Below are positions 1,037 to 20,186 of a stretch of DNA of 64,000 nt, piece after piece. Within the stretch, counting starts at the first letter, position 1. Each line of letters starts with the position of its first letter. The notes beneath the pieces are model-generated. The model searched no databases and was not told the origin of the DNA. It saw only the letters and a list, made by a program, of their open reading frames with translations. The stretch lies in contig CAVPPB010000002.1 of assembly GCA_963707215.1 (NCBI GenBank), positions 96,001 through 160,000 on the forward strand, given 5' to 3'. Both the position numbers and the translations under genes were made by a program. The DNA comes from an uncultured Chloroflexia bacterium. GTDB taxonomy: Bacteria > Chloroflexota > Limnocylindria > Limnocylindrales > CSP1-4.

Positions 1037-2035
1037 TCAGTCGGCCGGCGCCGCCGGCAGGGTCGTCGCCGGTGGTGCCGGCGGCGCGCTCGGCGCGCCC
1101 GGTCGCCGGAGGACGCCGCTGCGCCGCACGACGAAGGCGACGAGCACGACGATCACGCCGCCGACGAGCAGGAATGGCAGCCACGCGATGACGAACCAGA
1201 TGGCTGCGGTGGCGAGGCCCTGGAGCGCGCCCACGAGGCTGGCCGCAGCCTCGTCGACGATCGCCGCGGGATCCCAGCCCTTGGCCGTCTGGGCGACGGC
1301 GACGACCTCGACGACGTAGGTCGCGGTCACGGTCGCGAGGTCGGCCTGGTCCTCGACCAGCGCCTTCTGGGCCTCGAGCTGCTCGATCTGCTCCCGGGTC
1401 GCGGTCAGCTCGCGCTGGACCTCGAGCACGTCGGCGATCTTCGTAGCCTGCTCGAGGATGCCGACCAGGGCAGCCTCGCTGGCCCGCAGGTTCCGGATCC
1501 TGGCTTCGAGGTCGACGATCTGGGCAGTGACCTCGACCGACTCCGTCCGCTCGTCCACGACCTCGGAGGCCACGTCGCGGAGGGCCGCCAGCGCGTCCTC
1601 CCAGCGCTCGACGGGCACGCGGTAGGTCACGGTGGCCGAGGCCATCGCTTCGTCGTTGAGCTGGTTCGAGGCGCTGACGTAGCCGCCCAGGGCCGCGATG
1701 CGGGCCTCGGCGGAGCGGACGGCCGGGTCGATGTCGGTCACCCGCAGGGTCAGCCAGCCGGTCCGCACGACCCGGGCATCGTCCCGGGCGATGGTCGCCC
1801 CTCCGCCGCCGAAGTCCCGCGTCCCGTCCGACTCGCCGTTCGCCGGCTCGCCCGGGGCCGGTACCGCCGCGACGTCCGGGTCGATGTAGGAGCCGTCGCC
1901 GACCGCGTTGCCGACGTTCGAGAGGATCTGGCCCTCGCCGCTGCAGGCCGCCAGGAGGACGGCCAGCGTGGCAGCCGCGAGCACGATCCATGGCCTCCCC
2001 GTCCACTTGCCCCGGTGCCACTGCCGTTGGTCCAT
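1037..2035 (-). CDS. DUF4349-family lipoprotein
   Basis: Lipobox LLAAC, VVRTGWLTLRV, 'VTAQIVDLEARIRNL' coiled coil, C-terminal TM helix. Confidence 0.85.
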   Translation of the reverse strand: MDQRQWHRGKWTGRPWIVLAAATLAVLLAACSGEGQILSNVGNAVGDGSYIDPDVAAVPAPGEPANGESDGTRDFGGGGATIARDDARVVRTGWLTLRVTDIDPAVRSAEARIAALGGYVSASNQLNDEAMASATVTYRVPVERWEDALAALRDVASEVVDERTESVEVTAQIVDLEARIRNLRASEAALVGILEQATKIADVLEVQRELTATREQIEQLEAQKALVEDQADLATVTATYVVEVVAVAQTAKGWDPAAIVDEAAASLVGALQGLATAAIWFVIAWLPFLLVGGVIVVLVAFVVRRSGVLRRPGAPSAPPAPPATTLPAAPAD

Positions 2036-2160
2036 GGTGTGCCTCCGCTCGTCTCCCTCGTCGTCTCGGCAGACCGTGCTGTGCCGCCCTGACGTCCCGG
2101 CGCCGGCCTGTGTTCCCCTGGGCAGCCGGGACCGCGCTCATGGGGGGCTACACTCCGGCG

Positions 2161-3257
2161 ATGCGACTGCCGTTCCAGCCGCCGCTCGAGCCGATGCTGG
2201 CAAAGGCCGCCGCGGCGCTGCCCGAGGGCGAAGGCTGGCTGTACGAGCCGAAGTGGGACGGCTTCCGGGCGATCGTCTTCCGGGACGGCGACGAGATCCT
2301 GACCCAGAGCCGGGACCTGAAGCCCCTGGACCGCTACTTCCCGGAGCTGGCCGAGCCGCTGCGGGCCGCCCTGCCGGAGCGGTGCGTCGTGGACGGCGAG
2401 ATCGTGATCGCCCGGGACGGCGCACTGGACTTCGAGGCGCTGTTGCTGCGCATCCACCCCGCCGAGTCGCGCGTCCGGCTGCTGGCTGGCGGAGACGCCG
2501 GCGTCGTTCGTCGCCTGGGACCTGCTGGCGCTCGGCGACGAGGACCTGCGGGCCGTCCCGCAGGGCGAGCGCCGCGCGCGGCTGGAGACGGTCCTGGGCG
2601 CCGCCGCGCCACCGGTCCATCTCACCCCGGCGACGGTCGATCGAGCGCCTCGCCGCCGACTGGTTCGAGCGGTTCGAGGGCGCCGGGCTGGACGGGGTCG
2701 TGGCCAAGCGGCTGGACGCGGGCCTACCAGCCGGGCAAGCGGGCGATGCTCAAGGTCAAGCACGCCCGAACGGCCGACTGCGTCGTGGCCGGTTTCCGGT
2801 GGCACAAGAACGGACCGGGGACCCACGTCGGGTCGCTGCTGCTGGGCCTCTATCGACGACGACGGCCAGCTCCACCACGTCGGCGTCACCTCGTCGTTCA
2901 CCTGGGAGCGGCGGGCCGAGCTGGTCGGCGAGCTGGCGCCGCTGCGCGAGCGGCGCGATCGACGACCATCCGTGGGCGGAGTGGGCCGAGTGGGCCGGCT
3001 CCGGCACCGCCGACGCATCGGGGCAGCGCCTGCCGGGTGCGACGAGCCGCTGGAACCGGGGAAAGGACCTCTCCTGGGAGCCGCTCCGGATCGAGCGGGT
3101 CTGCGAGGTCGCCTACGATCACCTCCAGGGCGACCGCTTCCGCCACGCCACCACGTTCCGGCGCTGGCGGCCCGACAAGCCGCCGAGCGACTGCCGCTAC
3201 GACCAGCTGGAGGTGACGCCGGCCTTCGAGCTTGCCCGGATCTTCGGCGGCGGCTAG
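2161..3257 (+). CDS. ligC: ATP-dependent DNA ligase LigC (multiple frameshifts)
   Basis: EPMLAK, YEPKWDGFRA (motif I), DGVVAK, LKVKHARTADCVVAGFR and EVAYDHLQGDRFRH are spread over different frames. Confidence 0.88.
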
Positions 3258-5588: not shown

Positions 5589-7250
5589 TCACCCGTCTCG
5601 AGCGGCCCGGACCGCGTCGATCGTCCGCCGGTACGTGCCGGCGACCGCCGCGGCGGCACCGGTCCGCTCCAGGACCGCGGCCACCTCCGGGTGGACCCGG
5701 GCGAGGTAGAGCGCGACCCCTTGCTGGTCGAGTCGCCCGGCCAGCTGGGCGATCATGTCCGCGCCGGGAACGTCGAGGCTGACGGTCGCCTCGATGTCGA
5801 TGACCACGGCGTGCACGTCCGTGTCGCCCTGGGCCAGCGCCGCGAGCGACGCGAGCAGGGTGTCGGCGTTGGCGAAGAACAGCGGCTCCTCGAGACGCAG
5901 GATCACGATCCCGGAGGGGATCCCGGCATCGGGCTCCTCGGCTGCTTCGACGAGCGTGTCGCCGATCACGGCCAGCGGGGTCAGACGTGCCGAGCTGGCC
6001 CGCCAGATGACCAGCGCCAGCGACAGGGCGACCGCGAGGAGGAGGCCCGGCAGGACGTCGAGCACGAGGACCCCGACGAGGGCGACCATCGCCAGCCAGA
6101 AGTCGGCAGGGCCCACGTGCCAGAGCCGCCGGAGCGTGGCCAGCTTGAACATCGAGGCGACCGCCACGACGACGATCGCCCCCAGGACGGCCTCCGGCAG
6201 CGGCTCGAACAGCGGCGTCAGGAAGAGCGCGACGGCGATCGTGATGCCGGCGGCGACGACGCCGGCGAGCTGGGTCTGCATCCCGGCGTGCTGGGCGGCA
6301 GCGGTCTTCGACAGGCTGCCGCCGATCGGGAAGCCCTGGAAGACGCCCGCGCCGACGTTGGCCGTGCCCAGGCCGATCAGCTCTTGGTTCGCATCGACCT
6401 GCTCGTTGTGCTCCCGGGCCAGCTCGCGCGCCGGTCCGTAGGCCTCGGCGAAGGTGAGCAGGGTGAGCCCGACGGCACCCGAGAGGAGCAGGGCGAGGTC
6501 GTCGAGCCGGATCTCGGGCAGCCTGGGGCCCGCCAGCCCGGACGGCAGGTCCCCGACCACCTCGACCCCGCGGGCTTCGAGCCCGAGGATCACCGAGGCT
6601 GCGATCCCGAGCACGAGGGCGACCAGCGGTCCGGGGATCCGCTCGTCGAGCCGCTCGAGCCCGACCATCAGCCCGATGGCGAGCAGACCGACCAGGGTCG
6701 TCGGCAGGTGAGCCTCGGGCAGCTCCTGGACGATCGTCGCGATCTGGACGAAGAAGTCTCCGCCCGACCCCTCGATCCCCAGGATCTTCGGCACCTGGCG
6801 GACCGAGATGACGAGGGCGAGTCCCGACACGAAGCCGGCCAGGACCGAGGCCGAGAAGAACTGGGCCAGCCGACCGGCCCGGGCGAGGCCCGCGAGGATC
6901 GAGACGAGCCCGGCGAGGATCGCGAGCGCGGACGTGAGGGTGACGTACTCGAGGGTGCCCTGGGGGACGAGCGCGCCGATCGTCGCCGCGGAGAAGACCG
7001 CCTGGGTGGAGCTGACGACGACGACCAGCCGTCTCGACGAGCCGAAGATCGCGTACAGGAGCAGCGCGGGTGGCGCTGCGTAGAAGGCGGCCTCCGGGCT
7101 GACCCCGGCGAGCTGGGCGTAGGCCATCCCCTCGGGCACGAGGAGGGCCGTGATCGTGATCCCGGCGAGGGCGTCCCGAACGAGCCAGCCGCGTCGATAC
7201 CCGGGCAGCCAGCCGAGGATGGGGACGAGCGTCCGGAGCGTGGTCAGCAT
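5589..7250 (-). CDS. SulP (SLC26) anion transporter with STAS domain
   Basis: DALAGIT...VPEGMAYAQLAG, DANQELIGLG, GSLSKT, PLFFANA STAS. Confidence 0.93.
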   Translation of the reverse strand: MLTTLRTLVPILGWLPGYRRGWLVRDALAGITITALLVPEGMAYAQLAGVSPEAAFYAAPPALLLYAIFGSSRRLVVVVSSTQAVFSAATIGALVPQGTLEYVTLTSALAILAGLVSILAGLARAGRLAQFFSASVLAGFVSGLALVISVRQVPKILGIEGSGGDFFVQIATIVQELPEAHLPTTLVGLLAIGLMVGLERLDERIPGPLVALVLGIAASVILGLEARGVEVVGDLPSGLAGPRLPEIRLDDLALLLSGAVGLTLLTFAEAYGPARELAREHNEQVDANQELIGLGTANVGAGVFQGFPIGGSLSKTAAAQHAGMQTQLAGVVAAGITIAVALFLTPLFEPLPEAVLGAIVVVAVASMFKLATLRRLWHVGPADFWLAMVALVGVLVLDVLPGLLLAVALSLALVIWRASSARLTPLAVIGDTLVEAAEEPDAGIPSGIVILRLEEPLFFANADTLLASLAALAQGDTDVHAVVIDIEATVSLDVPGADMIAQLAGRLDQQGVALYLARVHPEVAAVLERTGAAAAVAGTYRRTIDAVRAARDG

Positions 7251-7388
7251 CGGCGGATCACCACGCATCCATCATGCCAGTCGCCAGCGACCCGGCTGGG
7301 CTCCTTGCACCGCATGGGTCTCGCAGAGCCCGGTCAGCGGCAGAGGCGGTCCAGGGTCAACGCGCGGTCGACTCCCGGTCGGCGGCGA

Positions 7389-7596: not shown

Positions 7597-8055
7597 TCAG
7601 GCTCCTTGTGCTTCGAGCGCGGCGTCGGCCTCGACGGCGGCGATGAGGGCCTGGATCGGGATCCGGCCGTTGGCGATCAGCTGACCACCCGCTCGGCGCA
7701 TCGCCGATGCGAATGGCGCAGCCCACAGGTTCTCGTAGACGAGGACGCCGGCAACGCTGCCGGGATCCATCGCGGCCGCAAGGTGATCGACATCCTCTTC
7801 GGCCAGCGTCTGGACGAGCTCGGTCTCGATCCGCGCGAGCTCACCGAGCTCGTCGAGATCACCCAGCTCCTGGGCCATGACCGTCCCGTCCTCCCCCTTC
7901 TGGAGGATGAGCAGGTCCATGAGTCGGATGATCCCGGCATCGTGGAGACGGAGGAGCTGGGCGGCGCCTTCGCCGGTGAAGTTCTGCTGCCCTGCTGGGA
8001 ACTCGACGATCAGGTAGTCGACGGGCCCGAGCTCGTCGAGCGATCTGTCTGTCAT
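7597..8055 (-). CDS. DUF6325-family protein
   Basis: MTDRSLDELGPVDYLIVEFP...GIIRLMDL...VLVYENLWAAPFASAMRRAGGQLIANGRIP. Confidence 0.85.
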   Translation of the reverse strand: MTDRSLDELGPVDYLIVEFPAGQQNFTGEGAAQLLRLHDAGIIRLMDLLILQKGEDGTVMAQELGDLDELGELARIETELVQTLAEEDVDHLAAAMDPGSVAGVLVYENLWAAPFASAMRRAGGQLIANGRIPIQALIAAVEADAALEAQGA

Positions 8056-8165
8056 GACTCCTCCACTTCGGTGGTTCGAAGAACGAGCCTCGCCGACGTC
8101 GTGGTCGAGGCGGCACAGTTGGTCCCCGAGCCTCTCAGAGGGTGCTCCCATACGAGCCCACCCGC

Positions 8166-8182
8166 CTCCCCCCATCGGGAGG
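8166..8182. promoter_or_regulatory. Putative MalT/LuxR operator, copy 1
   Basis: cTCCcCCcatcgGGaGGA matches TCC-N-CC-N5-GG-N-GGA. Confidence 0.5.
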
Positions 8183-8261
8183 ACTCGGCCCGCGGACGCC
8201 ACCCCGCTCGCGGGTCCGGTGTGGCGTCTGCGGGTGCCGTGGCCGCCCGAGCCATCGCAGC

Positions 8262-8281
8262 GTCCACCCGCGCGGGGGATG
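8262..8281. promoter_or_regulatory. Putative MalT/LuxR operator, copy 2
   Basis: gTCCaCCcgcgcGGgGGAtg, upstream of the DszB-like gene. Confidence 0.55.
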
Positions 8282-8377
8282 ACCGTGGGCGTGCCGGGAT
8301 GGTGTGATTGGACTGACGACGTACCAGGCGGTGTCCTGGTCGCGAGAACCGGGCGCATCCGGGCAAGGAGCACGAAC

Positions 8378-9544
8378 ATGACCGAGGTCCAGAGAGTCTC
8401 CACCACGGTGCCGCTGAACTGGAACGAGGTCTGGTTCACCAATTGCCCCATGGTGTCCGCCAACAACGTTGACCAGGAGCTCGGCTGGTGCCGCGAGGAG
8501 TTCAAGAAGATCGGCGTCGAGTACGCCTACTTCCGCCACGCACCCGAGAACAACTGGTACCCGCACTACATCCACAACCTCGACAACCTCATCCGCTTCG
8601 GCGGCCTGTACCCGCCGATCCACGTGAACGCCGACCTCCGCCGCACCGTGCTGCTGGGAGCGACCTGGGTCTATGAAGGCGGCTGCATGGCGGTCCGCGC
8701 CCGTGACGACGTCTTCAAGATGGCGGACCTCAAGGGCAAGAAGATCGGCATCAGCAAGAGCCTGAACACCATCAAGAACGACTGGTGGCGGATCCAGGAG
8801 CACATGGGCATCCTGAACATGCTCAAACTCCACGACATGACGATGGACGACATCGAGCTCGTCGAGTTCCCGTACCCCGACGACTGGTACGACAAGCCCG
8901 AGATGCTCATCCCGCCGATGAACAACCCGTCCGAGCTGTGGATGCGGCGCGACCACAAGCACGACCTCGCCTTCCGCCCGCTCGAGAAGGCGCTGCTCGG
9001 CGGCGTCGTCGACGCCATCTACACCCAGAGCAAGCCCTTCCAGCATCTCCAGGAGGCCACGGGCCAGCTCAAGATGATCGAGGACCTGTCCCGGTACCCC
9101 GACTGGACCATCCAGGTCGCCAACACCCCCGCGGTGATCACATGCACCAGGGAGATGGCCGACGAGCATCCCGAGCTCGTCATCGCCTACATGAAGGCCA
9201 TGGTCAAGGTCGGGCGCTGGGCCAATGAGCACAAGCGCGCCGCCGGCGCGATCCTCAACCGCCAGACGTTCTATCTGGATGCCGAGGATACGTACCAGGG
9301 CATCAAGCACGTCGACATGGTGCCGAGCCTGAGTGCGATGAACATGCAGACGATCAAGATCGGCAAGGACTTCATGTTCAGCCACGGCTACATCAAGAAC
9401 GACTTCGACGTGGATGAGTGGGCCCGCCCGGAGTTCCTGGAAAGGGCGTTCGAGGAAGTCCTCAAGGAGGAGTGGGAGCGCCGGAGCTGGAGCAAGCTTC
9501 CCGAGGGCGGCGGGCTCGAGGCCGAAGGCGTGCGACTGGGCTGA
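8378..9544 (+). CDS. DszB-like (desulfinase-type, SsuA/THI5 fold) cytoplasmic protein
   Basis: TNCP (C23), H63, R73-FGGLYPP, DLKGKKIG; no signal peptide; AAGGAG RBS. Confidence 0.75.
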   Translation: MTEVQRVSTTVPLNWNEVWFTNCPMVSANNVDQELGWCREEFKKIGVEYAYFRHAPENNWYPHYIHNLDNLIRFGGLYPPIHVNADLRRTVLLGATWVYEGGCMAVRARDDVFKMADLKGKKIGISKSLNTIKNDWWRIQEHMGILNMLKLHDMTMDDIELVEFPYPDDWYDKPEMLIPPMNNPSELWMRRDHKHDLAFRPLEKALLGGVVDAIYTQSKPFQHLQEATGQLKMIEDLSRYPDWTIQVANTPAVITCTREMADEHPELVIAYMKAMVKVGRWANEHKRAAGAILNRQTFYLDAEDTYQGIKHVDMVPSLSAMNMQTIKIGKDFMFSHGYIKNDFDVDEWARPEFLERAFEEVLKEEWERRSWSKLPEGGGLEAEGVRLG

Positions 9545-9586
9545 GCCGGCAGGCATCGATCGTGTGCCCCCCCAGGGGCGTACGCG

Positions 9587-10024
9587 GTGAACCTCTGGTC
9601 GCTCGCGGCTCTCGGCTGGACGGCGCGTAGCTGTCTGGACGCGCAGCTCTACTACGCGAACGCCCTCACGGTGCGTGACGAGATCATGGGTCTGGTCGCG
9701 GATCCGGACACGCCGGTCAGGGCCATCCTCATCGACGCCGCGGCCCAGGCTGGCCTGGACATCACGGGCTCGGACATGCTGAAGGGCCTCGTCAGCCGGT
9801 TGCGCAAGCGAGGTATCGATGTGGACTTCGCCGATGTCCGCCAGCCGGTCCTGGGGTTTGCGGCTCGGACGAACCTGCTTGAGCTGATCGGGGAGGACCA
9901 CCTGTTCCCGACCATCCAAGCCGCCGTCGACCGGATCGAAGCACCGTCTCGGACCGGTCAAGCAACCACCACCCGATCCAGCACCGAGAGGCCCGCGCCG
10001 ACACAGGAAGGGAGTCATCGATGA
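9587..10024 (+). CDS. Stand-alone STAS domain protein (resembles a SulP C-terminus)
   Basis: LDAQLYYANA...ILIDAAAQAGLDITGSDML...LFPTIQAAV; start uncertain. Confidence 0.72.
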   Translation: MNLWSLAALGWTARSCLDAQLYYANALTVRDEIMGLVADPDTPVRAILIDAAAQAGLDITGSDMLKGLVSRLRKRGIDVDFADVRQPVLGFAARTNLLELIGEDHLFPTIQAAVDRIEAPSRTGQATTTRSSTERPAPTQEGSHR

Positions 10025-10575
10025 GCTCGAATCACCCGATCGAGACGATCGCCGAGGCCCGGCGGACCAGCCTTGGGCTGTACGTCACGAGCAAGGAGGC
10101 GTACGACATGTGGCAGGCGGACCCCAGCCTCAGGATCCTCGACGTCCGCACGCCGGAGGAGTACGTCTTCGTCGGCCACGCGCCCATGGCCACCAACGTC
10201 CCCTTCGCGCTCCAGACCTACGAATGGGACCCCGAGCAGAGTGCGCTGCGCTGGGAGCTCAACCCGGACTTCGTGACGGCGGTGAAGGCTTGGGCCAGGA
10301 CCGATGAGACCCTCCTCGTCTCATGCCGGTCGGGGGGCCGCAGCGCGAAGGCGATCGACATGCTCGCGGCGGCCGGCTACACGAACCTCTTCAACGTCCT
10401 CGATGGCATGGAGGGAAGCAAGATCGAGGACCGCGACAGCGTCTTCGACGGCGTGCGGATGAAGAACGGCTGGAAGAACTCCGGGCTGCCCTGGACGTAC
10501 GAGATCGATCCCAGCCGGATGAAGCTGCCACCTCGGCAGAGCCGGACGTTCGTGGCCGGGAGCGAGCACGACTGA
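10021..10575 (+). CDS. Rhodanese-like sulfurtransferase
   Basis: ILDVRTPEEY...GHAP...CRSGGRS...GWKNSGLPW; ATGA overlap with the STAS gene. Confidence 0.92.
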   Translation: MSSNHPIETIAEARRTSLGLYVTSKEAYDMWQADPSLRILDVRTPEEYVFVGHAPMATNVPFALQTYEWDPEQSALRWELNPDFVTAVKAWARTDETLLVSCRSGGRSAKAIDMLAAAGYTNLFNVLDGMEGSKIEDRDSVFDGVRMKNGWKNSGLPWTYEIDPSRMKLPPRQSRTFVAGSEHD

Positions 10576-10604
10576 GCGGTCGCCTTGCAGCGGCCAGCGT
10601 TCTC

Positions 10605-11261
10605 CTACGCGGCCCCCCGGGTCCGGCCGAGGCGAACGAGCGGGAGCGCCAGCAACAGTGCCGTCGCCGCCACGTAGAGGCCGACGGCGACGAACGGCGC
10701 GATCAATGCGAAGGCGATGGCGACGATCCAGATAACGTTCGAGATCCTGCGCTGGCGGGTCATCGCCGCGAGCGTCTCGTCGGCCACCTCGTCCAGCAGC
10801 AGCGTCTGATCTCCGACGAGATAGGCCATGAGGAAGGTCAGCATCAGCGATGCAGCCAGCACGTTGATCCCGTAGATGAGGACGGCGACCGCGACGTCGG
10901 GGCCGGTGAGGTTGCCCACCATCAGACTGGTCGTGAACGGGATGACGGCGACGAGGAGCAGGAACAGCAGGTTGATCCCGGCCACGAGTCCGTCACTCCG
11001 CTGCATGAGCTTGGTCGTCCGCGCATGGGAGACCCAGCTGCCGCCGATGAACGCGAAGCTCATGAGATAGCCCAGGAACTCCGGCCATTGCTCGACGAGG
11101 GTCGGGAGCAGTGCCTCGGGTCCCACCGGGACCGTCAGCTCGAGGACGAGCAGGGTGATCGCGATCGCGAAGACGCCATCGGAGAAGGCGTCGAGGCGGT
11201 CGAGCGGTAGGGCGTCGGCAGGACGACGCTTCCGGTCGCCCGCGACGTCTCGGTCAGTCAT
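10605..11261 (-). CDS. TMEM175-family potassium channel
   Basis: RLDAFSDGVFAIAITLL signature; multiple TM helices. Confidence 0.92.
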   Translation of the reverse strand: MTDRDVAGDRKRRPADALPLDRLDAFSDGVFAIAITLLVLELTVPVGPEALLPTLVEQWPEFLGYLMSFAFIGGSWVSHARTTKLMQRSDGLVAGINLLFLLLVAVIPFTTSLMVGNLTGPDVAVAVLIYGINVLAASLMLTFLMAYLVGDQTLLLDEVADETLAAMTRQRRISNVIWIVAIAFALIAPFVAVGLYVAATALLLALPLVRLGRTRGAA

Positions 11262-12619: not shown

Positions 12620-14962
12620 ATGGAGTGTCCCGGTGCTGGACCCTGCGGAGGATCCGGCTTGCGCACGCTGCCTGACGCCTCCGTGCCTCAGCCGGAGATG
12701 CTCCGTCCCATAGCGCTCGACCCGGGTGAGCAGCCCCGCTCCGGCGCCCCCGGTCTCATGGAGGCCAAGCTCACGCCGCCTCGCCCCCGTGCAAGGACGG
12801 TGCGCCGGACGAGGCTCCTCCGCCGAGTCCGCGTCGCTCGAGATCTGCGGGTCCTCTCGATCGTCGCCCCGGCCGGCTACGGCAAGACGAGCCTCCTGGT
12901 CCAACTGGCGCGCCAGGCCCCTGACGCCACCGCCTGGCTGACGGCCGACGACGGTGACAACGATCCTGTCGTGTTCCTCACGAATCTGGCGTCAGCGATC
13001 GACCGGATCGTGCCCGTGGACGCAGGGGTCTTCGACGCGATCGTGTCTCCGCACCTGTCGGAGCGGGCTGCGGTCGGACGCCTTCTGGGCGCGATGTCCG
13101 GACGAGCCGAGCCCTCGATCGTCGCGATCGACGATGCGGACCGGATCATCGACCGCGCCTGCCTCGATGGCCTTGCCGAGTTCATCACCTACCTGCCTGA
13201 CGGGTGGCAGGTGATGATCGCCGGTCGGCGGCCAGCCGGCCTGCCCTTCCCTCGCTGGCAGATCGACGGATCGATGCTCGAGATCGGCCCTCGTGACCTC
13301 GCGATGGACGAGACGGAGGCGTCCAGCCTGGGCCGCCACCTCGGGCTCGCGCTCGAAGCCGAAACGGTGTCGCGGTTGACGCGGGATACGGAGGGTTGGC
13401 CAGCGCTGCTCGCGCTTGCCGCCCTGGAGGCCATCCGATCGCCGCGGCTCGATGGCGGCAGCGATGACCGCACCGAACCGACCCGAGGCCGGCACATGAC
13501 CGACTACCTTCGGTCCGAAGTGCTCGAGTCCCGCTCCGGAACGGAGGTCGAGTTCCTGACCCGCACCTCGATCCTCGAGCGCCTTTCCGGCCCGGTCTGC
13601 GCCACGGTCACCGGCCTGTCGGGATCTACGGACATCCTGGCCGGCCTCGCGCGATCGACCCTGCTCATCGACGAATACGGCGCGTCCTATCGCTACCACA
13701 GCCTTCTCCGCGACTTCCTGCGCGCCGAGCTGGCGGAGCGCGAGCCGGATCGGGTCGCCGAGCTGCACCGCCGGGCCGCGGCATGGTACAAGGCCGACGG
13801 CGCCCTTGATCTCGCGGTCGACCACGCGTTCGCGGCCGCCGATCCCGATCTCGCCGCGAACCTGGCGGGCCAGGGGATGGCTCGATACCACTGGTCGGGG
13901 CGGCGCGCAACCGTGAGATCGTGGTTCACGCGGTTCGACGACGAGGCCCTCGGGCGGCAGCCATGGCTCGCCGTCCTCGCCGCCTGGGAGGAGCTCGCGG
14001 CTGGCGACGTCGTTGCGACCGAGCGGCTGGCGGACATCGCCGACCGCGGGAAGTCCGAGGGACGGCCCCCCGACGGGACCGCTTCGTTCGAGTCAGGGCG
14101 CGCGATGCTGCGGGCCGTGATGGTGCGCAGGGGTGCGGCGGATGCGCTGGAGAATGCCACCCGGGCGGCGGAGCTGGAGACGGCCGGCAGTCCCTGGCGT
14201 GACTTCGCGCTCTGGACACTGGCCACGACCCGGCGGACCCTGGGTGACGAGGAGGGCGCGGACGCGGCGCTCGCGGATGCAGTCGCCGCCGCGCGATCGG
14301 CCGGCAACGATGGGCTCTGCTACTGCCTGCTCGGGCACCGCTCGCTGCTGGCCATCGAGCGGCACGACCTAACGGCTGGCGCTGCGTTCGCGGCCGAAGC
14401 TCGTTCGATCGGGGCGTCCCGGAGCGTGGATGGCTACCTTTCCTCAGTCCTCGCTCGCGCCGCCGCCATCAGGATCGCCGTCGACCGCGGCGACATCGCG
14501 GCCGCGCGCGCGCAGCTTGCCGGGGTCGTGGGACTGCGACCGCTGCTGACGGCCGCGGCGCCCGCGCTGGCCGTCATGTCGCTCATGAGCCTCGCCCGGG
14601 CCCATCTCGTTGTGGATGACCCGGGCGGCGCGCGCGCTTTGCTGGTACAGGCCGGCCACGTGATCCGCCAGCGTCCCGACCTCGGGGTCCTGCCCGACGA
14701 GGTAGCGGCGCTCCGCACGGAAGTCGCCGCGCGCCCGTTCGCCCTCGGTGGCGCCACGACCCTGACGACCGCCGAGCTCCGCGTGCTGGCGCTGCTGCCC
14801 TACTACCTGTCCTTCAAGGAGATCGGACAGCGGCTCGGCACCCGGTCGAGCACCGTGAAGACGCATGCGCTGTCGATCTACGGCAAGCTCGGCGCCTCCT
14901 CCCGGAGCGAGGCGGTCGATCTGGCTGTCCAGGCGGGCCTCCTTGAACGCTTCCCGCGGTAG
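12620..14962 (+). CDS. MalT-like LuxR-family ATP-dependent transcriptional regulator
   Basis: EAKLTPP, APAGYGKT Walker A, TEGWPA, YRYHSLLRDFL, C-terminal LuxR HTH (LTTAELRVL...SIYGKLGASSR); start may be 12698 or 12758. Confidence 0.92.
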   Translation: MECPGAGPCGGSGLRTLPDASVPQPEMLRPIALDPGEQPRSGAPGLMEAKLTPPRPRARTVRRTRLLRRVRVARDLRVLSIVAPAGYGKTSLLVQLARQAPDATAWLTADDGDNDPVVFLTNLASAIDRIVPVDAGVFDAIVSPHLSERAAVGRLLGAMSGRAEPSIVAIDDADRIIDRACLDGLAEFITYLPDGWQVMIAGRRPAGLPFPRWQIDGSMLEIGPRDLAMDETEASSLGRHLGLALEAETVSRLTRDTEGWPALLALAALEAIRSPRLDGGSDDRTEPTRGRHMTDYLRSEVLESRSGTEVEFLTRTSILERLSGPVCATVTGLSGSTDILAGLARSTLLIDEYGASYRYHSLLRDFLRAELAEREPDRVAELHRRAAAWYKADGALDLAVDHAFAAADPDLAANLAGQGMARYHWSGRRATVRSWFTRFDDEALGRQPWLAVLAAWEELAAGDVVATERLADIADRGKSEGRPPDGTASFESGRAMLRAVMVRRGAADALENATRAAELETAGSPWRDFALWTLATTRRTLGDEEGADAALADAVAAARSAGNDGLCYCLLGHRSLLAIERHDLTAGAAFAAEARSIGASRSVDGYLSSVLARAAAIRIAVDRGDIAAARAQLAGVVGLRPLLTAAAPALAVMSLMSLARAHLVVDDPGGARALLVQAGHVIRQRPDLGVLPDEVAALRTEVAARPFALGGATTLTTAELRVLALLPYYLSFKEIGQRLGTRSSTVKTHALSIYGKLGASSRSEAVDLAVQAGLLERFPR

Positions 14963-15560: not shown

Positions 15561-17056
15561 TCAGGGCGTGTCGTCGCCCGACCTCCGTCGTCCTCGCTCC
15601 GCCTGGCCCGAGTGATCGGGCCACTCGAAGCCGGCCCAGGGGTCGTAGTCGGGGTCGAGCTGCTCCTGCGTCGGGCGGAGCTCCTCGGGAACGTGGATCA
15701 GGTTCACCCGGATCCGGGTCCAGGTCGTCGAGCGACCGCGCATCGCGTCGACCAGGACGTCCGCGGGCTCGAGGGTACGGCACGACGTCGGGATGGCGGG
15801 TCTTCCAGCGGTCGAGGCCCTCGACGCCTCCTCCTTCCGGGCGGCGCGGGCGATCTCGACCACCGGGACCTGGCTCCGTCGACGCCCGGTCGGGGTCGGG
15901 CGGGTGCCCTTCCAGCTGGGTCGGGCCCACGGCGACGAGCCTTCGAGCCCGGCCCCCGCGTCCCCGGCCTCGACCGCCCGGCGTCGCGCCTCGGCGACCT
16001 CGGGAGGTGGCCCTCCATCGACGCCGCGGCCCTCGTACTCAGCCGGAGCGCGCCGCCGCTTCGACGGCTGCACGCGCGGCGGCTCGCCGGTCTGCTTCGC
16101 GTAGTGGGGCGGCCAGGGGGCATCGCCCAGGCCCTCCGCCTCGTGGCGGGCGGACAGCTCCAGCAGATGCCTCGAGCGAGCCGACCGCATCGTCGATCCC
16201 GGCGCCAGGATCGCCGCGCTCGGCGTACGATCCCCGGGCACCGTGGCCAGCGTGAAGGCTTCGGGCTCGACGTCGGCTACCTCGTCCCAGGTCAGCGGCA
16301 TCGAGACGCGGGCGTCGGGCGTCGGGCGGACCGAGTAGGCCGAGGCCACCGTCCGGTCCTTGGCGTTCTGGTTGTAGTCGAGGAAGACGCCGTGACGCTC
16401 CTCCTTCCACCACTTGCTGGTGGCGATGGACGGCGCGCGGCGCTCCACGTCGCGAGCGAGGGCGAGGGCGGCCCGCCGGACCTCGCGGTAGGTCCAGCGG
16501 CGCTCGATCCGGACGTTGACGTGGATGCCCCGCGACCCGGAGGTCTTGGGCCAGCCGACGAGGCCGACGGCATCAGAGCGCCTCACGGGCGACCAGGGCG
16601 ACCTCGCGGATCTGCGACCAGGGCACGCCGGGGACCGGGTCGAGGTCGACCCGCAGCTCGTCGGGGTGGTCCAGGTCGTCGGCGCGGACCGGATGCGGGT
16701 TCAGGTCGATGCAACCGAGGTTGGCGACCCAGGCCAGCCCGGCCGGCTCGTCGAAGACGACCTCGTCGGCGGTCCGGCCCGAAGGGAAGCGACAGGGTCG
16801 CCACCCGGATGAAGTCCGGCCGCTTCTCCGGTGCGCGCTTCTGGAAGAAGAAGTCGCCCTCGACGCCATCGACGAACCGCTTCAGGGCCATCGGGCGGTC
16901 GCGGACGCCCCGCAGCGCCCCGTCGCCGACGGCCAGGTAGTAGCCGACCAGGTCGAGCTTGGTGTAGCCGGCCCGCGGGAAGTAGACCTTGTCGGGGTTG
17001 GTGACGGTCACCTCGCGGTCGCCGACCTGCAGGATCTCCGACTTCCTGGTCGCCAT
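15561..17056 (-). CDS. Prim-PolC / LigD polymerase-domain protein (multiple frameshifts)
   Basis: VTVTNPDKVYFP...TKLDLVGYY, FFQKRAP, DELRVDLDP, KTSGSRGIH and FLDYNQNAKDRTVASAYSVR lie in different frames. Confidence 0.88.
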
Positions 17057-17173
17057 GACCGAACGATATCGGACCGGGGAAGCCGTTCCCGCGCTCAGGC
17101 AAGCGCGCGGGAGGGCCAGCACCGGTCTGGCCGCCCGACGCGTACCATCGGCGTGAGACCCGAGGTGACCGCC

Positions 17174-17518
17174 ATGCCAGATGCCACCGTCATCCCCGAC
17201 ATCCGGGCCGAGGTCGAGATCCCGACCGACGGGATCCTCTCCCGGACGGTCCACTCGTCCGAGCGAGCCCGGGTGGTGGTGTTCGGCTTCGATGCCGGCC
17301 AGGAGCTCAGCGAGCACACCGCATCGATGCCGGCGATCATCGAGATCCTCGACGGCGAGGCCGACGTCCTGCTGGGCGACACGCACCACCGGATGGGGCC
17401 CGGGGCCTGGGCCCACATGCCGGCCGGGCTGCGTCATGCCGTCCGGGCGACGTCCCGACTCCGGATGCTCCTCGTCCTGCTTCCCGGTCCCGCGGCTCCC
17501 GACGATCCCGGCACGTAG
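17174..17518 (+). CDS. Cupin-domain protein
   Basis: FGFDAGQELSEHT...ILDGE...MPAGLRHAV. Confidence 0.88.
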   Translation: MPDATVIPDIRAEVEIPTDGILSRTVHSSERARVVVFGFDAGQELSEHTASMPAIIEILDGEADVLLGDTHHRMGPGAWAHMPAGLRHAVRATSRLRMLLVLLPGPAAPDDPGT

Positions 17519-17558
17519 CCCCGAGGCCGCCCTGCCGCGCCGAGGTCCGGGTCGTGGG

Positions 17559-18095
17559 CTAGAGCGCGCCCCCGGCCGCGGCGGGTGCGTCGGCTTCCGT
17601 TTCGGCGGCGCCACCGGCGCCAGCGGTCCGGGCCAGATAGTCCTCGACGAGTAGGATGCTCGACTCCGAGGCGCGCTCGACCGTCCGCAGGAGGGCCGAC
17701 ATGCTGGCGACCTCCTCGACCTGCTCCTTGAGGAACCACTGAAGGAACTGCTCGCCGAGCATGTCTCCGTCTTCGCGGGCGATCCGGACGAGTCCCTGGA
17801 TCTGCTCGGTGACGGTGCGCTCCTGGGTCAGCGCCAGGGCCACCGGCTCGGCCGCGTCGCCGAACGAGGTCCTGGGTGCTTCGACACCGGGGATGACGAC
17901 CTCCTCGCCTGCGTCGAGGAGGTACTGGACAAGCATCATCGCGTGGTTCCGCTCCTCCACGGCCTGGCGGTAGAAGAAGCCGGCCAGCTGGGGGAGCGTC
18001 TCGGCGTCGTAGTAGACGGCGATAGCCACGTACTGCTGCGAGGCGCCGAACTCGTTGGCGACCTGCCCGTTGAGGGCGTCGGTGAAGCGGGACAT
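17559..18095 (-). CDS. Non-heme ferritin
   Basis: EFGASQQY...EERNHA...QERTVT...FLQWFLKEQVEEV ferroxidase centre. Confidence 0.93.
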   Translation of the reverse strand: MSRFTDALNGQVANEFGASQQYVAIAVYYDAETLPQLAGFFYRQAVEERNHAMMLVQYLLDAGEEVVIPGVEAPRTSFGDAAEPVALALTQERTVTEQIQGLVRIAREDGDMLGEQFLQWFLKEQVEEVASMSALLRTVERASESSILLVEDYLARTAGAGGAAETEADAPAAAGGAL

Positions 18096-18299
18096 CGGTC
18101 CTCCCGTGAGCATGAGGGTCCGGGTGGCGTCGGGCGACGCCGGCCGAACCTCAGGATAGCGAGCCCGACGGCGATCCCCATGGGCTGGCCGGACCGTCCC
18201 GTGACGACGCGGGACCGATGACGGGGGGCCATCCGGTGCGGTAGGGTCCGAGCCGAGGGAGTCGCCGCCCGAGCGGTGGGCCCGACCGAGGAGGGAGCC

Positions 18300-20186
18300 A
18301 TGAGCGACGGCGCCACGGCGCCCCGCGACCGATCCGGCGCCCTCGCCGCGGCTACGCGATACCTGCCCGGGATCGGCGTCCTGATCTCGTACCAGCGGTC
18401 CTGGCTTCCCCGCGACATCGGGGCCGGCCTCGTCCTCACGGCGATCCTGGTGCCGGCCGGCATGGGCTATGCGGAGGCATCCGGCCTGCCGGCGATCACC
18501 GGCCTCTATGCCACGATCGTCCCGCTGCTCGTCTACGCGCTCGTCGGACCGTCCCGCATCCTCGTCCTCGGCCCGGACTCGTCGCTCGTCGCCCTCATCG
18601 CGGCCGCCGTGCTGCCGCTCGCGGCCGGCGATCCGGAGCGAGCCGTCGCGGTCGCCGGGCTCCTGGCCCTCATGACCGGCGCCATCATCGCGGTCCTCGG
18701 GATCGCCCGGCTCGGGTTCATCACCGAGCTCCTCTCGGACCCCGTCCGGAACGGCTACCTGACCGGGATCGCGGTGACCGTCGTGGTGTCCCAGCTGCCG
18801 AAGCTGTTCGGCTTCTCCGTCGACGCGGTCGGCTTCATCGGTGACCTGCTGGCGTTCGTCGGCGGGATCGCCGACGGCCTCACCGAGCCGGTCGCCCTCG
18901 CCCTTGGCGTGGGATCGCTGGCGGTCATCTACGGTCTCCGGGCCATCCGCTTCCCGATCCCGGGGATCCTCGTGGCCGTCGTCGCCGCGACATTGGTGTC
19001 GGCCGTGCTCGGACTGGAGGCGGCGGCCGGGATCTCGGTCGTCGGCGTGCTGCCCAGCGGTCTGCCAGGCTTCTCGGTGCCGCCGCTCGAGCTGGGCCTG
19101 GTCATCGACCTGGCCCCGGCCGCCATCGGCATCGCCGTCGTCGCGGCCGCCGACACCAGCGTCCTGTCGCGCACCTTCGCGGCCCGCCACGGCGACGACG
19201 TCGACCCGGACCAGGAGCTCGTGGGCCTCGGGGCGGCCAACGCAGTGGCGGGATTCTTCAGCGGCTTCCCGATCTCGTCCAGCTCGTCGCGGACCCCGGT
19301 GGCCGAAGCAGCCGGCGCCCGGACCCAGCTGACCGGGGTCGTCGGGGCGCTCGCGGTCACCGGCCTCATCGTCTTCGCTCCCGGGCTGCTGGCCGCGCTG
19401 CCGAGCGCGACCCTGGCCGCCGTGGTCATCGTCGCCGCGACCTCGCTCGTGGACCTTCGCTCCCTGGTCCGGCTTTATCGGGTCCGTCGCTCGGAGTTCC
19501 TGCTGGCCCTCGTCTCGTTCGGCGGCGTCGTCTTCCTCGGCGTCATCCAGGGGATCTTCCTGGCCGTCGCGATGTCGCTCCTGGCGTTCGTCCGCCGGTC
19601 GTGGCAACCGCACGACGCCATCCTGGGCCGAGCCAAGGGCGTCAAGGGCTACCACGATCTCGCCTACTACCCCAGTGCCCGGCGGATCCCGGGGCTGCTC
19701 CTGTACCGGTTCGACGCCCCGCTGTTCTTCGCCAACGCGGACCTCTTCGCGGACCGGGTCCTCGCCCGGATCCGGAGCGCACCGGAGCCCGTCCGCTGGG
19801 TCGTCGTGGCAGCCGAGCCCGTCACGGACGTCGACACGACCGCGGCGGCCAGGCTGGACCTCCTGCTCGACGACCTGGAGCAGCGGGGGATCGTGCTGGC
19901 CTTCGCCGGCCTCAAGGACTTCGTCAAGGACCGCCTCCGGGCGACCGGGACGCTCGAGCGGATCGGGGAGGACCGCTGCTACCCGACGATGGGGACGGCC
20001 GTCGACGCCTACGTCGAGGCGACGGGGACCGACTGGATCGACTGGGAGGAGGCAGCCGAGGCCGGTCGGGCCGACGCCTGGGGCGGAGGCGCGCCGGGCG
20101 AGGACGTGGGCCCGCCGGCCCCCGATCAGGTCCCTCCCGACGACGGGACCCCGGGGACGGGGCCGACCGACCGTCCGACCGACTAG
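18300..20186 (+). CDS. SulP anion transporter with STAS domain
   Basis: DIGAGLVL...PAGMGYA, DPDQELVGLG, SSSSRT, RFDAPLFFANA. Confidence 0.93.
   Translation: MSDGATAPRDRSGALAAATRYLPGIGVLISYQRSWLPRDIGAGLVLTAILVPAGMGYAEASGLPAITGLYATIVPLLVYALVGPSRILVLGPDSSLVALIAAAVLPLAAGDPERAVAVAGLLALMTGAIIAVLGIARLGFITELLSDPVRNGYLTGIAVTVVVSQLPKLFGFSVDAVGFIGDLLAFVGGIADGLTEPVALALGVGSLAVIYGLRAIRFPIPGILVAVVAATLVSAVLGLEAAAGISVVGVLPSGLPGFSVPPLELGLVIDLAPAAIGIAVVAAADTSVLSRTFAARHGDDVDPDQELVGLGAANAVAGFFSGFPISSSSSRTPVAEAAGARTQLTGVVGALAVTGLIVFAPGLLAALPSATLAAVVIVAATSLVDLRSLVRLYRVRRSEFLLALVSFGGVVFLGVIQGIFLAVAMSLLAFVRRSWQPHDAILGRAKGVKGYHDLAYYPSARRIPGLLLYRFDAPLFFANADLFADRVLARIRSAPEPVRWVVVAAEPVTDVDTTAAARLDLLLDDLEQRGIVLAFAGLKDFVKDRLRATGTLERIGEDRCYPTMGTAVDAYVEATGTDWIDWEEAAEAGRADAWGGGAPGEDVGPPAPDQVPPDDGTPGTGPTDRPTD

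Follow-up and report, generated by a model that had tools for sequence, protein, structure and literature searches.

A gene at 8378..9544 of the 64-kb stretch of DNA analyzed here (the window, taken at its full length), which comes from an uncultured Chloroflexia bacterium, encodes a protein of 388 residues whose relatives carry the name of a substrate-binding subunit of ATP-binding cassette (ABC) transporters. We propose that the product of this DszB-like gene is instead a soluble, cytoplasmic enzyme of the DszB superfamily, one that would need no cofactor, depend on a cysteine and release sulfite, and that it is not part of a transporter; judging from its sequence and predicted fold, we hold this proposal with evenly balanced confidence. 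We infer from the same material that the protein is catalytic, that sulfite is what it sets free, and that its reaction is linked to that of a rhodanese encoded in the same apparent operon. The proposal is based on the residues that the protein has in common with DszB, on a predicted structure that resembles DszB more than it does any binding protein, and on the genes that recur around its relatives.

Relationship of the window protein to DszB

A phmmer search of all PDB chains with the window protein matched two distinct sequences, both of them DszB: the apo enzyme 2de2 (E 7.3e-10) and 2de3, the substrate-bound C27S mutant (E 2e-9). The alignment extends over residues 20-357 of the query and 24-360 of DszB, with ftNCP over ysNCP and RFGG over RFGG, and it pairs T21-N-C23-P with S25-N-C27-P of DszB; with 2de3 it begins at H63 of the query and H60 of DszB. 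An earlier sequence-only reading had picked out TNCP with Cys23, His63 and Arg73-FGGLYPP as the catalytic residues of DszB, and all of these are present in the translation, as T21-N22-C23-P24, H63 and R73-F74-G75-G76-L-Y-P-P. The spacing of His and Arg to which it had drawn attention is also the same in the two proteins (H-x9-R), while the distance from Cys to His is 40 residues in the window protein versus 33 in DszB.

The structure predicted by AlphaFold2 from a 33-row alignment has a mean predicted local distance difference test score (pLDDT) of 89.7 and a predicted template modeling score (pTM) of 0.88, and pLDDT falls below 50 only at residues 1-8 and 378-388. In Foldseek the top match of the model is DszB (E 6.6e-19, TM score 0.76), followed by SsuA, THI5 and TauA. 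With VIA-align, Z is 31.5 for substrate-bound DszB (2de3_A; root-mean-square deviation 2.7 Å over 317 residues) and 30.0 for apo DszB (2de2), versus 25.2 for the best SsuA (3uif); it is 18-20 for cytoplasmic regulatory domains of CmpC and NrtC, and 14.7 for 4,5-dihydroxyphthalate decarboxylase (9jp7), which has a binding-protein fold. The model thus superposes on substrate-bound DszB, a check that had been suggested for the sequence-only reading, and the window protein is nearer to DszB than to binding proteins both in sequence and in predicted fold.

According to the available part of PMC6100217, the active site of DszB is made up of C27, H60, R70 (of the RXGG motif), S25 and G73; C27 is essential, the H60Q replacement cuts activity ~17-fold, and S25, to which T21 of the window protein corresponds, forms a hydrogen bond with H60. 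When 33 full-length sequences of 25-89% identity are aligned, seven columns are invariant among the homologues (C23, H63, R73, G75, G76, L149 and P251), and five of the seven, namely C23, H63, R73, G75 and G76, match active-site residues named for DszB in that part of PMC6100217. This pattern of conserved residues is beyond what chance would produce.

What the window protein appears to have in common with DszB (also TdsB or BdsB, the 2'-hydroxybiphenyl-2-sulfinate desulfinase of the 4S dibenzothiophene pathway, EC 3.13.1.3; 2DE2, 2DE3) is thus a cytoplasmic location, independence of cofactors and a type II fold, together with a catalytic Cys in (S/T)-N-C-P, a His in H-x9-R and the RXGG motif. 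The two differ in that identity is only ~22-23%, that the window protein carries an extra conserved C-terminal tail of ~30 residues, and that its gene has no oxygenase gene of the dszA or dszC type next to it. Moreover, the partners in the clade formed by the window protein and its close relatives are rhodanese, CoADR-rhodanese, SulP and BASS, and this clade is far more conserved than DszB, across many phylum labels.

The C-terminal tail (pattern EEW.RRSWSKLP.GGGLE..G.RLG) is specific to the clade. It ends in R-[L/I]-G in 78 of 80 relatives, is not seen in homologues below ~45% identity in the 33-sequence alignment, and in the model consists of a helix followed by an end (378-388, pLDDT <50) that is predicted to be disordered. 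The ...RLG tail looks like a docking peptide. The idea that it marks the protein as encapsulin cargo was also considered; the window's own genome (84.8% complete) yielded no shell gene of PF04454, the one encapsulin family searched for. A metal site formed by four Cys residues (C23, C38, C102 and C256) was rejected, since C38 and C102 are substituted in close relatives such as P0123, P0071 and P0103. Some clade members (P0005, P0013, P0093 and P0117) have an N-terminal extension of 75-95 residues, in which a short conserved helix (..KLDEHGVTLEQA..) is followed by a linker rich in Lys, Ala and Pro; the window protein is without it.

The open reading frame (ORF) of the DszB-like gene is intact, from the ATG at 8378 to a stop codon that ends at 9544 (388 codons; Table 1). 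The list of ORFs extends the frame back to 8054, which adds ~108 residues unlike the N-terminus of any homologue, and the GC content at third codon positions (GC3) is 0.94 in the frame of 8378..9544.

Table 1. Positions in the window of the DszB-like gene, its catalytic codons and the genes around it
Feature	Position	Strand	Basis
DszB-like gene, 388 amino acids; predicted cytoplasmic, type II periplasmic-binding-protein fold	8378..9544	+	Translation
Shine-Dalgarno-like AAGGAG	8365..8370	+	7 nt 5' of the ATG, read from sequence
Cys23 codon (= DszB Cys27), motif T-N-C-P	8444..8446	+	Alignment; invariant in homologues and in 75 ungapped clade copies
His63 codon (= DszB His60)	8564..8566	+	Alignment; invariant
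Arg73-Phe-Gly75-Gly76 codons, RXGG motif (= DszB Arg70 to Gly73)	8594..8605	+	Alignment; invariant
Clade-specific C-terminal tail (~residues 358-388), helix then low-confidence end in ...RLG	9449..9541	+	
STAS-only ORF, SulP permease remnant without membrane domain	9587..10024	+	Pfam STAS, E 2.7e-10
Single-domain rhodanese, 184 amino acids, intact C102-R-S-G-G-R-S active-site loop	10021..10575	+	Pfam, translation
DUF6325 gene, divergent	7597..8055	-	Pfam, E 3e-7
Full-length SulP anion permease with STAS, downstream of DUF6325	5589..7268	-	Sulfate_transp E 7.9e-84, STAS E 5.3e-17
Large LuxR-family regulator with N-terminal AAA/STAND NTPase region	12620..14962	+	Pfam GerE, AAA_22, nSTAND
Second SulP-STAS permease	18276..20186	+	Pfam

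The family and its annotation as a transporter subunit

In a word-indexed search of protein clusters formed at 90% identity, 3052 proteins scored E <= 0.001, and every one of the top 120 is 78-91% identical to the query. An exhaustive search of representatives at 50% identity gave 981 matches at E <= 0.001, 578 at <= 1e-10 and 144 at <= 1e-30, and there, apart from the query's own cluster, the closest full-length representative has 64% identity and the next ones ~43%. Scanning one genome per species (185,579 species) matched 511 stretches, 480 of which were confirmed as relatives; the locus counts given below come from the best 80 of the 480, which are 86-97% identical to the window protein and are dominated by metagenome-assembled genomes (MAGs) from soil of two phyla. 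Several database entries (P0016, P0054, P0276 and P0277) seem to join a DszB-like protein to a rhodanese, SulP or ferredoxin-nitroreductase. None was retained as a true fusion: P0276 (SulP) has out-of-frame junk between its parts and P0277 (ferredoxin-nitroreductase) an out-of-frame junction, both being read-through artefacts that attest adjacency only, and P0016 (493 residues) and P0054 (505 residues), also with out-of-frame junctions, appear to be gene calls affected by frameshift or read-through. No study of the DszB-like clade was found in the open full-text literature, which leaves subscription journals and supplements uncovered. A proteomic study of Chelatococcus (PMC4839641) reports a 'DszB' peptide homologous to DszB of R. 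erythropolis, and nothing in the available part of that article ties the peptide to the window family.

Among the best 120 proteins of the first search, most of those that have a name bear the label 'ABC-type nitrate/sulfonate/bicarbonate transport system substrate-binding protein', which is how the sequence-only reading had expected automatic pipelines to label them. Taken at its word, this name would make the window protein the genuine substrate-binding subunit of an ABC importer, and it agrees with a weak match to Pfam NMT1 (24.1 bits, barely past the cut-off of 20.5; E 4e-5) and with a partial match to NCBIfam TIGR01728 (SsuA_fam). The SsuA_fam match, however, scores 55.2 bits where the cut-off is 163.5, and covers profile positions 145-289 alone. 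A search of a protein atlas gave binding-protein-fold families exclusively. SsuA and TauA (TIGR01728; 3uif, 2x26) do have the fold in common with the window protein (Z 23-25), which like them would have a cleft that binds sulfur oxyanions, but the SsuA proteins are exported, non-catalytic and encoded with the genes of an ABC permease and ATPase. In contrast, the first 60 residues of the window protein reach a mean Kyte-Doolittle hydropathy of 0.9 at most (11-residue window) and, on inspection, have no hydrophobic N-terminus, and the residues before Cys23 are F-T-N and form no lipobox; this agrees with the cytoplasmic location that had been claimed from the sequence. Nor are there ABC genes within 15 kb of the DszB-like gene, the nearest match to an ABC ATPase lying ~15 kb away, at ~24.5 kb in the window. 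The further possibility that homologues might be linked consistently to ABC permeases was also checked: direct queries found any ABC match within 8 kb at 9 of the 80 loci and within ~3 kb at 2, and de novo clustering of neighbors with Pfam, which added Na+/H+ exchangers, CLC, MFS and enoyl-CoA hydratase to the list, gave no ABC cluster. The annotated ABC role has next to no chance of being right and is effectively excluded, and the members of the clade are uniformly mislabeled as transporter subunits.

Genes around the DszB-like gene

The sequence-only reading had described the gene as an orphan. This did not hold: the apparent operon also encodes a rhodanese, and the relatives are repeatedly accompanied by rhodanese, CoADR-rhodanese, SulP and BASS. 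In the window, a STAS-only ORF begins on the same strand 42 nt past the stop of the DszB-like gene, and its own stop is overlapped by 4 nt by the start of a rhodanese gene whose Cys102 is invariant across 33 partner rhodaneses. At L001, the locus whose DszB-like protein is closest to that of the window (97% identical), the DszB-like and rhodanese genes have a full SulP between them. We regard the STAS-only ORF as what is left of such a SulP, since it aligns with residues 468-570 of the L001 permease at 77% identity and ~1.5 kb, corresponding to the membrane domain, is missing relative to that locus. On this arrangement, the DszB-like gene, the SulP remnant and the rhodanese form an apparent operon. 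A prediction of a complex between the DszB-like protein and the adjacent rhodanese scored 0.00 in two runs without controls, which speaks neither for nor against binding, and a scan of 7900-10800 for promoters and terminators gave nothing above the shuffled background. The LuxR-STAND gene further downstream is a possible regulator of the module.

The partners of the relatives were counted at the 80 loci by tblastn with proteins of the window and of the loci (E <= 1e-8, >=40% coverage, within 5 kb); a looser first-pass count gave similar figures. A rhodanese is the commonest partner, found at 42/80 loci and at 33 of them within 300 bp on the same strand, and with the CoADR-rhodanese fusion (8/80) included the figure rises to 46/80. 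A LuxR-STAND regulator is present at 31 loci, often ~330 bp from the DszB-like gene, SulP at 20, DUF6325 at 18, BASS at 14 and PPK2 at 13, and enzymes of the BCR/HgdAB type occur at a single locus (L064, within 1.1 kb). Among 11 phylogenetically diverse loci the recurring set consists of CoADR-rhodanese, BASS, SulP, the DszB-like gene and rhodanese, with CoADR-rhodanese directly beside the DszB-like gene in several phyla and in Rhizobium. Genes for oxygenases that could make a sulfinate are another matter: tblastn queries taken from a dsz-like operon of Rhizobium, a dszA-like luciferase-like monooxygenase (LLM) and a dszC-like acyl-CoA dehydrogenase (ACAD), matched 0/80 and 1/80 loci, respectively, the latter at the far end of L080, and neither had a match in the window. 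The claim that the gene lies outside any dsz operon is thereby upheld.

The recurrence of rhodaneses also lends itself to a different explanation, in which Cys23 is an acceptor and carrier of sulfane sulfur and not the nucleus of a C-S lyase. Cys23 would then attack the S-S bond of a thiosulfate, thiosulfonate or S-sulfonate held in the oxyanion site, and the resulting persulfide (or S-sulfocysteine) would pass its sulfur to rhodanese, coenzyme A or CoADR-rhodanese. The 46 loci with rhodanese or CoADR-rhodanese, the direct adjacency of the latter, the invariance of the Cys together with the oxyanion-binding residues, and the lack of a nearby oxygenase to make a carbon sulfinate all fit such a carrier. 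No member of the superfamily is known to act in this way, however, a carrier would duplicate the activity of rhodanese itself, and distant members of the superfamily lie in dszABC-like operons, where C-S cleavage is expected. We consider a sulfur carrier rather unlikely.

The SulP genes invite a second alternative, according to which the protein is a non-catalytic cytoplasmic sensor of an anion (sulfite, thiosulfate, sulfonate or bicarbonate) that controls SulP, BASS or further anion channels, STAS domains being one possible route, in the manner of the NrtA-like C-terminal domain of the cyanobacterial ATPases NrtC and CmpC. The fold is common to SsuA, NrtA, CmpA and the regulatory domains of CmpC and NrtC (9uak, 9uai and 8wm7), which are cytoplasmic, anion-binding and not exported, a SulP with STAS stands between the DszB-like and rhodanese genes in L001, and anion carriers or channels (SulP, BASS, CLC and bestrophin-like) recur nearby. 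Yet the cyanobacterial domains are fused to an ABC ATPase, are non-catalytic and have 11-12% identity to the window protein, and no Cys/His/RXGG set is reported for them among the matches listed. The invariant residues of the window family coincide with those that DszB uses for catalysis, and the Cys among them would serve no purpose in a binding protein; the model is 5-6 Z units nearer to DszB than to any binding protein. Furthermore, 60 of the 80 loci have no SulP within 5 kb, and in the window itself the DszB-like gene has stayed intact next to a SulP whose membrane domain is gone. On these grounds we regard a sensor as unlikely.

At many loci from Actinomycetota (L003-L009, L025, L032, L036, L039, L080 and others) the DszB-like gene has no sulfur-gene neighbor; what these loci have is a LuxR-STAND gene on the same strand at a distance of ~330 bp and, in many cases, a gene for the polyphosphate kinase PPK2 at ~540 bp. 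In all, 26/80 loci lack rhodanese, CoADR-rhodanese, SulP and BASS within 5 kb, and most of these show just a LuxR-type regulator and/or PPK2. If the sulfur neighbors were incidental and the neighborhood a general stress or anion island, the protein could be a cofactor-free lyase for a sulfinate-like group that contains no sulfur, for example a decarboxylase acting on an aromatic carboxylate. A decarboxylase (9jp7) is indeed among the structural matches, and aromatic or hydrophobic chemistry is hinted at by the FadL/TodX-type outer-membrane channel that adjoins the gene in Nitrospira and by the enzymes of the BCR/HgdAB type that flank it on a Rhizobium plasmid (and are found at 1/80 loci). The decarboxylase match is, however, far weaker than that to DszB (Z 14.7 vs 31.5), and a rhodanese that is adjacent on the same strand at 33/80 loci from several phyla is hard to call incidental, which makes a lyase for a non-sulfur group very unlikely in our estimation.

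A TMEM175-like gene, in convergent orientation, also lies downstream of the rhodanese, and the first 22 kb hold, at 1990-3216 (+), 16583-17614 (-) and 17559-19655 (-), an ATP-dependent DNA ligase domain, a LigD primase-polymerase fragment and a ferritin-like domain.

Cultured carriers and plasmid homologues

The same module occurs in cultured Rhizobium, with relatives that are 64-67% identical to the window protein. A tblastn search of plasmids matched 87 records, four of them at 60-80% identity. On a plasmid of R. leguminosarum ATCC 14479 (L082 6484-16811), the 67% identical relative is flanked on one side by two HgdAB-type D-components and on the other by two BcrAD-type activase ATPases, after which come BASS, two rhodaneses, SulP-STAS and a bestrophin-like gene; in Rhizobium strain 22B (64% identity) the relative is beside CoADR-rhodanese and a homocysteine S-methyltransferase. 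Other cultured carriers include Chelatococcus asaccharovorans, Aliisedimentitalea scapharcae and Nitrospira sp. NS4.

More distant homologues on plasmids of Rhizobium and Sinorhizobium (L084 6983-8020 and L085 6983-8020) belong to the same superfamily, with 26-28% identity over 86-92% of the query, and are annotated as 'ABC transporter substrate-binding protein', a label as misleading as that of the clade. Unlike the window clade, they are found in dszABC order (LLM oxidoreductase, DszB-like, acyl-CoA dehydrogenase), and, judged by members of similar identity in the 33-sequence alignment, they have no C-terminal tail. To judge from this gene order, these distant members look like true desulfinases, which speaks for a desulfinase role in the superfamily at large and marks off the tight clade from these members.

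A proposed mechanism

By homology, we put forward the following hypothetical mechanism for the window protein as a DszB-type enzyme. A sulfur oxyanion group (-SO2- or -SO3-) would be held in the cleft between the two lobes by His63, Arg73 and the backbone of Gly75-Gly76. Cys23, positioned by Thr21 and His63, would then break the bond between this group and the atom that carries it, without a cofactor and with the release of SO2 or sulfite. The substrate is probably smaller and more polar than the biphenyl sulfinate of DszB, and the pathway probably handles a compound that contains both sulfane and oxidized sulfur, because rhodanese is the commonest partner and the CoADR-rhodanese fusion is found in other genomes. 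Rhodanese can use thiosulfonates, leaving sulfinates. The candidate substrates would be a molecule of the thiosulfonate or thiosulfate type, or the sulfinate that remains after removal of the sulfane sulfur. Uptake of the anion, or export of sulfite, would fall to the SulP or BASS permeases.

Several points weigh against this mechanism. We know of no activity or ligand on record for any member of the clade, and rhodanese alone already cleaves thiosulfate, which leaves the need for a second enzyme unexplained. The 26 loci described above have none of the sulfur partners, and no oxygenase that would make a sulfinate lies nearby. DszB closes its lid loops (50-60, 135-150 and 180-200) through hydrophobic contacts that grip a hydrophobic product, whereas the segments aligned with them in the clade (such as RHAPENNWYPH and PYPDDWYDKPEML...NPSELWMRRDHKHD), compared at the level of sequence only, are charged, rich in Trp and Tyr and nearly invariant, so that the substrate is unlikely to be like that of DszB. 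Finally, in the mechanism favored for DszB in the available part of PMC6100217, the proton of the Cys protonates the aromatic carbon in a modeled electrophilic aromatic substitution, and chemistry of that kind requires an sp2 carbon. Given the charged lid segments, the lack of a nearby oxygenase and partners that handle sulfane sulfur, we favor a small, polar substrate that is tied to the rhodanese reaction.

Conservation, distribution and expression

The DszB-like clade is highly similar across phylum labels and yet patchily distributed. The best 80 relatives are labeled as Actinomycetota (49) and Chloroflexota (19), with the rest from Pseudomonadota, Nitrospirota, Ignavibacteriota, Acidobacteriota and Planctomycetota and from two archaeal bins; 75 of 81 copies are 388 residues long with no gaps, and at 194 of the 388 columns all 75 have the same residue. 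The gene is present as a single copy in the window's own genome, and at E <= 1e-20 it was found in 0/300 other sampled genomes of the same phylum, including 0/15 of the same family. Placing the phylum labels on a maximum-likelihood tree takes 15 changes (11 for Actinomycetota alone) versus a minimum of 7, which makes it likely that the gene moved between phyla, with the reservation that the labels of MAGs are fallible. The two archaeal records (L024 and L059) come from bins labeled as methanogens. The contig of L024 ('Methanoregulaceae') has, in addition, genes for a squalene-hopene-cyclase-like protein and a PEGA-domain protein; its archaeal assignment may for this reason be a binning error, and the archaeal records are not relied on.

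Measured against the window copy, the median proportion of synonymous differences is 0.38 and that of non-synonymous differences 0.074 (74 pairs). For the majority of the locus pairs compared, synonymous differences are about as frequent as in the adjacent rhodanese (for example, proportions of 0.32 vs 0.30 and 0.42 vs 0.41), and in the closest pairs (L001 and L018) they are less frequent, while the non-synonymous proportion of the DszB-like gene is ~2-6 times below that of the rhodanese. The extreme similarity of the proteins is therefore mainly a matter of strong purifying selection, acting on a gene that has also been moving between lineages. Recent spread as the sole cause of this ultra-conservation was not supported, since synonymous divergence matches that of the neighboring rhodanese in most pairs compared.

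GC is 65% at 8001-10000 of the window versus 72-73% around it, a dip for which recent horizontal transfer was considered and rejected. Specifically, GC3 of the DszB-like gene tracks the GC of the host (slope 1.05, r 0.84), while the GC of the gene as a whole hardly shifts (slope 0.41) and stays at ~57-65% in the family whatever the host. We attribute the dip to a fixed protein sequence that is rich in residues with AT-rich codons, because GC3 follows the host and total GC does not.

In four metatranscriptome libraries from as many studies (three of sediment, one of wetland), between 162 and 1456 contigs match at >=85% likeness, and they come from many relatives and fall almost wholly on 8377-9531. 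Few or no contigs fall on the STAS remnant or on the greater part of the rhodanese region, and the libraries are uninformative on the expression of either. The contigs hint weakly at transcription of the family in sediment and wetland habitats, carry-over of DNA being possible.

Implications

The essence of our proposal is that the DszB superfamily occurs in a new context. To our knowledge DszB is the only enzyme of its kind to have been studied, and it is known to us only from aerobic operons for the desulfurization of fuels, in which it is the slow step of the pathway. The branch considered here, which has the catalytic residues of DszB, is much larger and uncharacterized (3052 cluster proteins and 480 loci under many phylum labels), and in the open literature searched the family itself has not been described before.

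A bolder hypothesis, to which we give a modest chance of being right, is that the clade is the signature enzyme of an oxygen-independent, sulfite-releasing route for a sulfur compound that is common in soils and sediments. In such a route, rhodanese or CoADR-rhodanese would strip the sulfane sulfur off a compound of the thiosulfonate type or a related one and the DszB-like enzyme would cleave the remaining X-SO2- without an oxygenase, the SulP and BASS carriers would move the anions, and the disordered ...RLG tail would dock a partner protein. In some genomes the gene is flanked by an ATP-driven reductase of the BCR/HgdAB type, which may supply the route by reducing a more oxidized or aromatic precursor.

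At a minimum, the annotation of thousands of genes should be revised, and the cultured carriers make the function of the clade directly testable. If the window protein and its relatives do release sulfite without oxygenases, they would provide new desulfinase scaffolds and would fill a gap in the cycling of organosulfur and sulfane sulfur under low oxygen.

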